A stretch of DNA of 64,000 bases, from the NCBI RefSeq assembly GCF_054482595.1, contig NZ_CM137008.1. The stretch is one strand, 5' to 3'. The first letter of the stretch is position 1; each line of letters starts with the position of its first letter. Shown piece by piece: positions 3,469 through 8,172 of this stretch. Made by a program: the position numbers and the translations under genes. The notes beneath the pieces were generated by a model. It was not told the origin of the DNA, did not search any database, and saw only the letters and a list, made by a program, of their open reading frames with translations.

Positions 3469-3714
3469 GTTACTATCCTTATCAACAAATATTAAAACCA
3501 TAATAGATATTTCTTTATAGTTTTCATCTGATTCTGAGGCGATATGCCTGATAGTAACGTAAACCTGTCTGATGTTTATATCCCTTCTGTTTAGTTCAAT
3601 TCCGTTATTTTGGGGCGTGGCATGAGTATCCATCGCCCCATAATATAACCCTTTGTTTTAAAATTACATAAAATCTATTTTTATTCAAGGATTATAAAGT
3701 GCTAATAATCAATA

Positions 3715-4938
3715 TTATGGTATTATATTCTGATAATGATTTGATAAGCGAATTCTTTTGCCATATGGTATTTCTATTTCCACCCCATAATTTATATCTT
3801 TTTCATTAGGCAGATCTCTCTTTAAATAAAAGGGGTATGAAATCTTTTCGGGTTGAAGTGTCTCGTAATGAAATGCTATGAATTCATTTTCAGACATTGT
3901 TGCCCATTTTTGAATTTTATTGTATAGAGATGGTGTTGTAAACTCTTGAAGTTGCTTATAACATATTTTTTTGAACTCTTGCTTATATTTTGATATATCA
4001 TCAAATGAAAGATTTACTACCTTTGCCTCTAAGAAATCAATTATTCTCGAAGCAATTTCCGCTTTCGCGCGTAAAGAGTTGTTATTAATAGTTAACAATG
4101 TAGAAAACAAGCCATCGATTTGTTTGTCAAGATGCTGTTCATATTCATGTAGTTTGGGGATTGGATTTTCCTTGTGTGAAAAAATAGTGTTAAATAAATT
4201 TGCGTCAGTGAAATTTATATTAAGTAGATCTTCAAAATAAAATTTTGATAAGGTTAGGACTAGCCTGGACATATCTTGCCCTGTCATGTTGAAATCAATA
4301 AAGTCGCATCCAGCAAGGGCTTCCATCCTATTTTCATTTTCACTGTGCTCAATATACAGCTTCGCCATTTTTAGGTACAAGCTTTGAATGTCTCTTATAT
4401 CAGTTGGTAAGTCAGCTCGTTGCCCAGCAAAATTTTTATTATCAGAAGAAACGGTTTGGACACTGAATCTTTCGGGTATTCCTTCTTCTACGAGAATTTT
4501 AGTTATGATTGGATTGTTGGGTTCTGGATTAACGACAACAATGATTTGACATACAGAATCCTTATCCTTTTCGTATCTAATGTTATGAATCTGATTAAGT
4601 ATTGATTGTGTCTGTTGCGTAAGTGGTGTCGAACTTATCGTTTCAATGTTATTAATAAGACTTACAAGTTGAGCCACAACTTTTGAGTAGTCTGCATTTG
4701 TATATGTAGTGTTCGTGTGGCACTCATTAATTTGTTGGAGTTGTTGTTGGGCTAAATCAAATTGTTCAGGGTTGTATTCTTCTCCAGAGAATGTGGAATT
4801 AATGGGTTGTTGTTCTTCCCAATTATCACAAGGCCACTTCGGTGTGTCTGGTGTTTTAACATCGTCAGTATTTGTTGTGCAGTTATAAATATCGCCGTGA
4901 TATGTATTTATTATACCTGGGGTAAAGTCAATTGACAT
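3715..4938 (-). CDS. yhiS: Uncharacterised protein YhiS (intact 407 aa form)
   Basis: AT-rich 407 aa ORF in the position of yhiS between slp and arsC; Asn/Gln-rich; no recognisable catalytic motif. Confidence 0.7.
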
Positions 4939-5415
4939 AACATTCCTTATTCATCATTTGTTTTATGCTAAGATTTTTAAATTGGATAATTAGAACAGGA
5001 ATGGATTTTCTTCTACACATAATAAATATAATGCGTTATATCTTCCTGATATAATTACCTTTGACTTCCCTTTTATCTCCACCCGTTAATATTTGTGTAT
5101 AAAAAAGGGCAGTGATAGTATCGTAAAAGAAAACGTTAACAACTATCAAAAAGCGCTCATTTTAAAAAGTTATTATGTTCTCTGATAGTGTGTGAAGTGA
5201 TATTTTTGTGATGTTTTAGGTGTGTAATAATAAAATGGGTTAAGGTATCTTATAATTATTTAATAATTTGTTGTGTAAATCACTGATAAATCATAATGCA
5301 GTACGTCTTTAAACTACTGCACTGTATCGCTGATAACTAAGCAGCTCACTGATACACCATGCTGGACGCGATAATTGGAATCTCACGCAGGGAGTACTGT
5401 GTAAATAGCAAAATC

Positions 5416-5517
5416 GCCTGATGCGCTACGCCTGTCAGGCCTACAAATAACATACAATTCATCGAATTTTCATAACATTGTAGGTCGGATAAGACGCGCC
5501 AGCGTCGCATCCGACAT
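5416..5517. repeat. Pair of inverted REP (repetitive extragenic palindromic) elements, BIME-like
   Basis: gcctgatgcgctacgcctgtcaggcctac (5416-5444) and gtaggtcggataagacgcgccagcgtcgcatccgacat (5480-5517) match the E. coli REP consensus in opposite orientations. Confidence 0.7.
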
Positions 5518-5564
5518 AAATAAAGCGCACTTTTCTAACAACCTGTGGGGGGGATATAGCCGCT

Positions 5565-7345: not shown

Positions 7346-7699
7346 TTAACTACAAGTGTTCTTACTGTCTACGGAACAATTTTGTCTGGCCAGGTTGCGG
7401 ACAATCACCTGAACCTTTTCCTGTTCGCATCGCCAGGCCTGCTCAATAATTTTCGCGGCCCATGATGGAATATGCGGTGATAAGCGGTAATGAACCCACT
7501 TACCCTGCTTGCGATCCAGCAACAAACCGCTTTCACGAAGAAGCGCCAGATGGCGGGAGATCTTGGGCTGCGACTGGTCGAGAGCAGTGCAGAGATCACA
7601 GACGCATAACTCTCCCAGCTCGCTGAGCAGTAAAACGATGCCCAGACGGGTTTCATCGGCAAGAATTTTGAACAGTTGGATGGGTAACAGAAATGACAT
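7346..7699 (-). CDS. arsR: ArsR/SmtB-family arsenic-responsive repressor
   Basis: 117 aa; helix-turn-helix with metal-binding ELCVCDLC motif; first gene of arsRBC. Confidence 0.95.
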
Positions 7700-7849: not shown

Positions 7850-7940
7850 GTAAAAAAACCGACTTTGCGTCGGTTTTTTACTTTCCAGCCCTGAGTTGGT
7901 GGCTCTGGCTGGAGTGAGAATGCCCACATCTAACGGTTCA
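7850..7940 (-). ncRNA. agrA: AgrA/AgrB-family antisense small RNA, arsR-proximal copy (less complementary to the dinQ leader)
   Basis: ~90 nt repeat unit with core ctgagttggtggctctggctggagtgag; ends on the minus strand in hairpin ccgac-N-gtcgg plus U-run (7853-7880). Assignment of agrA versus agrB between the two copies is uncertain. Confidence 0.45.
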
Positions 7941-8081
7941 ATACTATTAGCCAGTGGCTAACATTGCAAGCGTTAGCGATTTCTTCAGCTGGCGGAGGGG
8001 GCACTTCGGTATATATCGCAGTGACGATTTATATACTTTCACTGGGTCATCGTCATATTAAGCCTTGTCCGAATCCGGACG

Positions 8082-8172
8082 TAAAAAAACCGACTTCGCG
8101 TCGGTTTTTTTACTGTTCAGCCCTGAGTTGGTGGCTCTGGCTGGAGTGAGATAGCCATCATCTAACGCATCA
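8082..8172 (-). ncRNA. agrB: AgrA/AgrB-family antisense small RNA, dinQ-proximal copy (more complementary to the dinQ 5' leader)
   Basis: Second repeat copy ~232 bp from the first; its complement pairs with dinQ leader 8334-8365 (ctggccggagtgagatagtcgtcatctaac) with about 3 mismatches; same hairpin plus U-run terminator (8088-8112). Confidence 0.45.

Follow-up and report, generated by a model that had tools for sequence, protein, structure and literature searches.

The 64,000-nucleotide window analysed here (one strand of contig NZ_CM137008.1, NCBI RefSeq assembly GCF_054482595.1) carries at positions 3715 to 4938, on the minus strand, the coding sequence of yhiS, an Escherichia coli gene that starts with ATG and continues for 407 codons with no internal stop. 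Both the open reading frame (ORF) and the RefSeq annotation define the gene, the product of which is a hydrophilic protein of 407 amino acids (47.3 kDa, pI 4.9). Compared with E. coli XH990, a urine isolate, the window is 100% identical, and there the ORF is annotated as a "hypothetical protein" (WP_021557293.1) between slp and arsC. The local order on the minus strand is arsR, arsB and arsC, a spacer of 626 bp, yhiS, slp and dctR, followed by chuS and chuA on the plus strand, as expected from an earlier note made from the sequence alone (the original prediction), which had placed yhiS between the slp-dctR genes and the ars operon. The same note had described a single uninterrupted frame, and this holds: at the composition of yhiS, with stops expected at about 0.073 per codon, the chance of an ORF of 407 codons is P ~4e-14.

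The yhiS gene (33.7% GC, 29% at third codon positions) and the arsC-yhiS spacer (4939 to 5564; 34.8% GC overall, 31% over 4939-5400) are distinctly AT-rich, as xenogeneic DNA would be, at 31-35% GC versus 51.3% for the window. The intergenic region is therefore AT-rich as originally described, with a length of 626 rather than 630 bp. The product is rich in asparagine and glutamine, as was also predicted (together 15.2% of residues, about twice the E. coli average), and its commonest residue is isoleucine (10.1%), as AT-rich coding would give. The grand average of hydropathicity of YhiS is -0.55 and its maximum Kyte-Doolittle score (window of 19) is 1.04; no stretch reaches the hydrophobicity that a signal peptide or transmembrane helix would need, and neither was found on the Kyte-Doolittle scale.

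The intact state of yhiS had been regarded as distinctive because the K-12 gene is disrupted. The disruption is real (in MG1655, IS5 interrupts yhiS after nucleotide 744 and the 3' part carries a frameshift flag), but K-12 is the exception: 11 of the 16 alleles compared are intact, including those of BL21, SC418, GF3-3 and ST70, and clusters of the intact 407-residue protein have thousands of members. The other five alleles are broken in differing ways. O157 has a truncated product (371 amino acids), the genes of STEC308 and 2013C-4225 are frameshifted, and E12 has a deletion of the 3' two-thirds of yhiS along with the loss of arsR and arsB (comparison locus L010, 4492-4871). Several of the further disrupted strains (ET791, EC31, NCCP12480, TUM2820 and T2) have IS1 insertions inside the central part of the gene. 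The K-12 gene occupies the same slp-arsC locus as that of the window, but it belongs to another allele class (88.6% nucleotide identity over its first 744 nucleotides) and is split, whereas the copy in the window is unbroken and is of a class that about 10% of genomes carry. Annotation based on K-12 mislabels yhiS as a pseudogene.

RefSeq, using the Prokaryotic Genome Annotation Pipeline, also gives yhiS a "frameshifted" label in SC418, GF3-3 and ST70, yet each of the three genes, when translated from the conserved ATG, reads through 407 residues without interruption (L008, 4721-5837; L013 and L015, 1623-2739). These flags look like an annotation artefact, perhaps produced by comparison with the truncated 371-residue O157 protein.

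A core of 801 nucleotides (3800-4600, approximately codons 113-380) was compared with 5426 complete genomes. It is present in 4363 of them and missing from about 1063. Identity to the window core is bimodal: 422 genomes are at least 95% identical and 3936 are 80-90% identical, with only two at 90-95% and three at 60-80%. The control gene slp, by comparison, is carried by 5417 genomes and shows an identity of 95% or more in every one. When other alleles were used as queries, a BL21-type class of 3675 genomes, a MINF_9A-type class of 190 and an ERR7420778-type class of two were obtained, beside the window-type class of 422. Between alleles, amino acid identity falls as low as 61%, and the synonymous divergence (dS) reaches 0.6, in strains whose flanks can be 100% identical; the flanking genes of the same strains, arsR excepted, have dS of 0-0.2 and non-synonymous divergence (dN) below 0.02.

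The divergence is confined to a block with sharp edges. Between the window and O157 FRIK944, dctR, arsC, arsB and arsR are 100% identical and yhiS is 85.5% identical; in sliding windows, divergence rises abruptly at about position 3800 (85 nucleotides inside the 3' end of yhiS), stays near 20% as far as 4600, drops to 5-10% over the stretch to about 5500, and vanishes past that point. The segment from 3800 to 4600 is the hypervariable cassette, with about 20% nucleotide divergence between classes, and positions 4601 to 5500, which comprise the 5' third of yhiS and the upstream spacer, form the rest of the recombined block. A sharp edge at about 3800 is seen again in an unrelated setting, between 23AB and E308, two K-12-like backgrounds with different classes. 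The four-gamete test is failed by 20% of informative site pairs, and segment types reassort into mosaic alleles. Judged from these alignments, yhiS evidently exists as at least four discrete allele classes, which homologous recombination has moved between backgrounds in the form of a fixed-edged cassette some 0.8-1.7 kb long. Misalignment or a local hotspot of mutation was considered as the cause of the divergence and rejected, given the bimodal identity, gap-free alignments and sharp, reproducible edges.

The window class is found in both chu-positive and chu-negative backgrounds, with a dS of 0.059 between them, comparable to that of the flanks, and has thus long been resident in the species. 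The suggestion of horizontal acquisition, reasonable and in print already for K-12, holds insofar as yhiS looks foreign (low GC content overall and at third codon positions, no relative found outside E. coli and Shigella among 1.84 billion cluster representatives). The gene is neither recent nor strain-specific, because its core is found at this locus in 4363 of the 5426 genomes and the allele classes are internally diverse. Recent insertion of an island was likewise rejected, since 80% of genomes have an occupied locus and mobility genes are absent.

Despite this diversity, the reading frame is evidently constrained. Comparisons between allele classes give a dN of 0.09-0.22, a dS of 0.2-0.6 and an omega (dN/dS) of 0.25-0.55, and the deficit of non-synonymous changes relative to neutrality is significant (binomial P, 4e-4 to 1e-14). 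Two of the alleles are separated by 169 substitutions; random placement of these created 6.8 stop codons on average, and only 0.08% of trials kept the ORF open. The length of YhiS is constant at 407 residues in alleles with as little as 61% amino acid identity, with a single exception of 410, and the start codon and first N-terminal residues are invariant across alleles. The omega value is lowest (about 0.2) over codons 181-300, although dS is highest there (about 0.53), and it peaks over codons 41-100 (about 0.68) and 321-380 (0.7-0.8). The pattern of substitution argues that yhiS is a real gene with a reading frame upheld by purifying selection; an interruption of the frame in this window, which would have told against the original prediction, is not seen, and the frame appears to be both open and maintained.

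Within the most constrained part of YhiS lies a pentapeptide-repeat core of nine consecutive, in-register pentads (residues 211-255, encoded at 4174 to 4308 on the minus strand), the central residues of which are F/M/M/L/F/L/F/L/F; tandem in-register pentads of the A(D/N)LXX type, at least eight in a row, characterize family PF00805. The pentads can be read directly, and they were also recovered when a profile of 15 YhiS alleles was searched against 1.84 billion cluster representatives: the search found one full-length cluster, fragments of yhiS, and canonical pentapeptide-repeat proteins, the latter matching only profile positions ~203-277 (E values from 1e-8 to 1e-3) and confirmed as such by Pfam. 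A profile search of the Protein Data Bank (PDB) aligned the same stretch with the pentapeptide-repeat protein Rfr32 (2f3l, E = 0.007). Thus the statement that the product has no recognisable enzymatic motif is correct for enzymatic motifs, but not for motifs in general. YhiS resembles the pentapeptide-repeat proteins, the only family matched by its profile, in its tandem pentads with F, L or M at the centre preceded by D or N; it differs from them in having just nine pentads within an otherwise orphan protein of 407 residues, in scoring below the Pfam threshold as a single sequence, and in that structure prediction gives no confirmation of the fold. Nine pentads would be enough for about 2.25 turns if the usual beta-helix forms.

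The regions N-terminal and C-terminal of the repeats, about 88% of YhiS, are without detectable relatives outside its own family, and every named match is from E. coli or Shigella. No significant match to YhiS was found in Pfam, NCBIfam, PADLOC or PHROGs, the best PHROGs hit (E = 0.012, not significant) being to a family of unknown function. Exact peptide patterns from the C-terminus and then the N-terminus gave no confirmed relative among GTDB species representatives, a weak negative because no E. coli locus was returned either. Searches with tblastn found no copy of yhiS in a phage collection, and among plasmids only three records of 4.8-4.9 Mb, apparently mislabelled chromosomes. From its sequence, YhiS is predicted to be a soluble, cytoplasmic 47-kDa protein with a short pentapeptide-repeat core, the family having been found only in E. 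coli and Shigella.

The DNA upstream of yhiS is also conserved in features that may serve its expression. A candidate sigma-70 promoter (TTGATA, an 18-nucleotide spacer, TACGAT; 5120 to 5149, minus strand) is suggested by consensus match, and all of the intact alleles in the alignment, even the most diverged, keep both of its hexamers. A Shine-Dalgarno sequence, AAGGA (4944 to 4948, minus strand), lies 5 nucleotides upstream of the ATG within AATAAGGAAT, which is invariant in all 14 of the sequences aligned. Promoter-like sites as a whole were not above chance in a scan (12 versus 9.8 +/- 3.5 in shuffled sequences), and the promoter/terminator scan found no intrinsic terminator. Over positions 4900-5300 the window is 95.8% identical to K-12, the arsC/yhiS spacer of which is one of 78 "promoter islands", bound by H-NS in all of the chromatin immunoprecipitation data sets used and accompanied by predicted foreign genes (Panyukov and Ozoline 2013; PMC3661553, Table 1). 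The window spacer, about 96% identical, resembles these H-NS-bound islands; that work dealt with K-12 alone, and the coding gene and its allelic diversity were outside its scope. According to a 2026 preprint, StpA maintains chromatin structure in the absence of H-NS at sites that include yhiS (bioRxiv 10.64898/2026.02.10.705075), and overexpression of YdeO left yhiS expression unchanged (PMC4222967).

Amino acid differences of up to 39% between strains with near-identical flanks, together with purifying selection and a conserved core, make a pattern typical of genes of biological conflict. The explanation favoured here, to which we give roughly even odds, is that the product of yhiS is a binding protein, silenced and dispensable, on which diversifying or balancing selection has long acted. 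H-NS and StpA would normally silence the gene, so that it would be expressed only under particular conditions. The repeat segment would be a conserved scaffold, and the faster-evolving flanks (codons 41-100 and 321-380) would be surfaces that bind a rapidly changing partner, whether a phage, a competitor or a host factor. YhiS would act by binding or recognition and not by catalysis, and its old alleles would be kept by frequency-dependent or diversifying selection, with loss of the gene where it is unneeded. A bolder version, rather unlikely in our estimation, is that YhiS is the founder of a so far undescribed class of "conflict" proteins in E. coli that combine a short pentapeptide beta-helix scaffold with hypervariable orphan domains, the ancient allele classes each recognising different phage, competitor or host variants and being kept by frequency-dependent selection, for example as a silent single-gene sensor or decoy.

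Several observations weigh against a silenced binding protein of this kind. No window of codons has an omega above 1 (the maximum is about 0.8), so that the ends of the gene exhibit relaxed constraint and positive selection is undemonstrated. Frequent independent pseudogenisation would also suit a gene of low value, and the deep classes could stem from introgression instead of balancing selection. The single-sequence Pfam match to the repeats lies below threshold (E = 0.19, 11.8 bits versus a cut-off of 20.2). Of the remote-homology and structural checks that had been recommended, the profile search recovered the repeats, but AlphaFold2 models built with 15 and then 70 sequences had a mean predicted local distance difference test score (pLDDT) of only 36.5 and 38.8, respectively, with 22-35 at the repeats and no beta-helix. 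None of the PADLOC-DB defence models matches YhiS (best E = 1.2). The H-NS data come from K-12, in which yhiS is broken.

The introgression alternative, in which the allele classes are neutral imports from other Escherichia lineages via homologous recombination, without balancing or diversifying selection, is a possible explanation, though we doubt it. It would account for a dS of 0.3-0.6 in yhiS, above the value of at most ~0.2 in the flanks and such as divergence between species would give, and for a sharp-edged cassette that moves between backgrounds; nearby arsR is dimorphic too (dS 0.30), which indicates that imports do occur in this region. Against it, the named matches all come from E. 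coli or Shigella, and the two GTDB pattern scans gave no confirmed relative, a weak argument given that an exact match was needed and even E. coli loci were not returned. The classes are also internally diverse and spread over backgrounds, which indicates long residence in the species, and omega varies strongly along the gene. The view that yhiS lacks a function and is a relic of old foreign DNA in decay, diverse because constraint is absent, is highly improbable, and for the history of yhiS it is largely refuted. It draws on the five broken alleles of 16, the ~1063 genomes without the core, the occurrence of IS5 and IS1 insertions and, from the literature on K-12, silencing by H-NS; in addition, no function has been reported, and deletion of yhiS in K-12 produced no chlorhexidine phenotype in a study that lists the gene as an uncharacterised pseudogene (PMC8170033). 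Against it stand an omega significantly below 1, a probability of ~0.08% or less that the ORF would remain open under neutrality, the absence of insertions and deletions across alleles down to 61% identity, and conservation of the Shine-Dalgarno sequence and the promoter-like hexamers. Moreover, relaxed constraint cannot produce 14-20% divergence beside flanks that are 0-0.7% divergent.

Two further alternatives start from the repeats. That YhiS is a pentapeptide-repeat effector of a T3SS (type III secretion system), like PipB2, EspY3 or NleL/EspX7, delivered by the system of the locus of enterocyte effacement (LEE) or by the ancestral E. coli type III secretion system 2 (ETT2) and decaying where those have decayed, is unlikely. 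Enterobacterial effectors in which an unstructured N-terminus and an N-terminal domain are joined to pentapeptide repeats do exist: the repeats of NleL occupy residues 170-370 (PMC3013003), and EspY3 has runs of eight and nine repeats to the ~30 of PipB2 (PMC6313403). YhiS, with nine pentads and an invariant N-terminus rich in S, T, N and P, could be read in the same way, as an enterobacterial accessory protein with a non-repeat part preceding the repeats, and the neighbouring genes are part of the acid fitness island. The likeness to PipB2, EspY3, NleL/EspX7 and SopA is confined to architecture, since hhalign pairs the YhiS profile with PipB2 only at the repeats, with 10% probability. Outside the repeats YhiS has no detectable homology to PipB2, EspY or NleL-SopA, whether in the N-terminal part or in a HECT-like or WEX5F domain; no effector is among the matches of the PDB profile search, and fold matches carry no weight because the structure models are of too low quality. 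Beside yhiS there are no genes for T3SS chaperones or effectors, 80% of complete genomes have the core, and BL21, which is not known to carry the LEE, has an intact ORF. Only a minority of E. coli strains are LEE-positive. Least credible of all is a DNA mimic of the Qnr/MfpA/McbG type that shields gyrase from toxins, a function for which the pentapeptide repeats themselves and QnrB1 structures among the weak PDB matches (E ~3) could be cited. Qnr, MfpA and McbG consist almost entirely of repeats, ~200 residues long, enough to mimic DNA; in YhiS the repeats account for 45 of 407 residues (~2.25 coils), and about 88% of the protein is unrelated sequence.

The existence of yhiS as a catalogued gene, its intact copy as the norm, the foreign-looking, AT-rich, H-NS-bound spacer (in K-12) and the palindromic repeats described below were known already. 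The literature searched contained no functional study of yhiS and no report on its allelic structure; one paper (PMC9729726) calls it an "unknown gene" at the border of the acid fitness island. What is added here, the repeat motif and the allelic hypervariability, is a moderate lead and not the discovery of a mechanism. Because natural allele classes and natural knock-outs both exist, yhiS is a cheap experimental target.

Other differences among strains adjoin yhiS. At a site corresponding to ~5247-5351 of the window, many strains insert a two-gene module (a permease and an ArsR/SmtB-family regulator) between the yhiS upstream region and arsC. This module is present in 23-AB02114, 2013C-4225, SC418, MINF_9A, XDL, JNE12-007 and ST70 (e.g., comparison loci L006, 6419-7823, and L009, 6418-7846) and absent from the window, K-12, O157 and BL21. 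At the other end, the last ~85 nucleotides of yhiS (3715-3800) and the yhiS-slp spacer (3469-3714) are nearly invariant, with about one mismatch per 100 nucleotides versus O157, even where the yhiS cores differ by 20%. This invariance may be due to the regulatory region of slp; a second K-12 promoter island, insH_11/slp, is located at the equivalent of the yhiS-slp end (PMC3661553).

The arsC-yhiS spacer ends, as had been predicted, in two inverted repetitive extragenic palindromic (REP) elements, one at 5416 to 5446 on the plus strand and the other at 5479 to 5516 on the minus strand, resembling a bacterial interspersed mosaic element (BIME). The arms are imperfect palindromes of 31 and 38 nucleotides in opposite orientation, both found by a short REP consensus pattern, and each folds into its own hairpin on the arsC transcript strand. 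The second arm has a sub-threshold match (5484-5516) to the REP-derived Rfam family naRNA4. The 111-bp REP stretch has at least 40 matching places in a typical E. coli genome. REP and BIME sequences are extragenic hairpin palindromes of ~30-40 nucleotides with many dispersed copies (dozens to hundreds in the E. coli family), and the present pair differs from them in nothing notable. It begins 48 nucleotides past the arsC stop codon and is therefore assigned to arsRBC, at the 3' end of its transcript, as an ordinary inverted pair unrelated to yhiS. As a standard operon-end element it says nothing about horizontal transfer, for which it had been offered as evidence.

The arsR gene (7346-7699) is dimorphic in E. 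coli, the window, O157 and SC418 having one allele, and K-12, E308, BL21-like strains and others a second that is 92.4% identical. The dS between the two is ~0.30, compared with ~0.095 for the adjacent arsB, and arsR is a second patch imported by recombination, 2.4 kb from yhiS. Next to dctR the window has chuA and chuS (341-2155) where K-12 has yhiD-hdeBA (comparison locus L002, 86-1571), which is the known chu insertion within the acid fitness island of chuA-positive phylogroups. Finally, two strong matches to the Rfam family AgrB (RF02891; 108 and 91 bits versus a gathering score of 40) are found at 7850-7933 and 8081-8165 on the minus strand; these are antisense RNAs from the dinQ type I toxin locus, which lies between arsR and gor.

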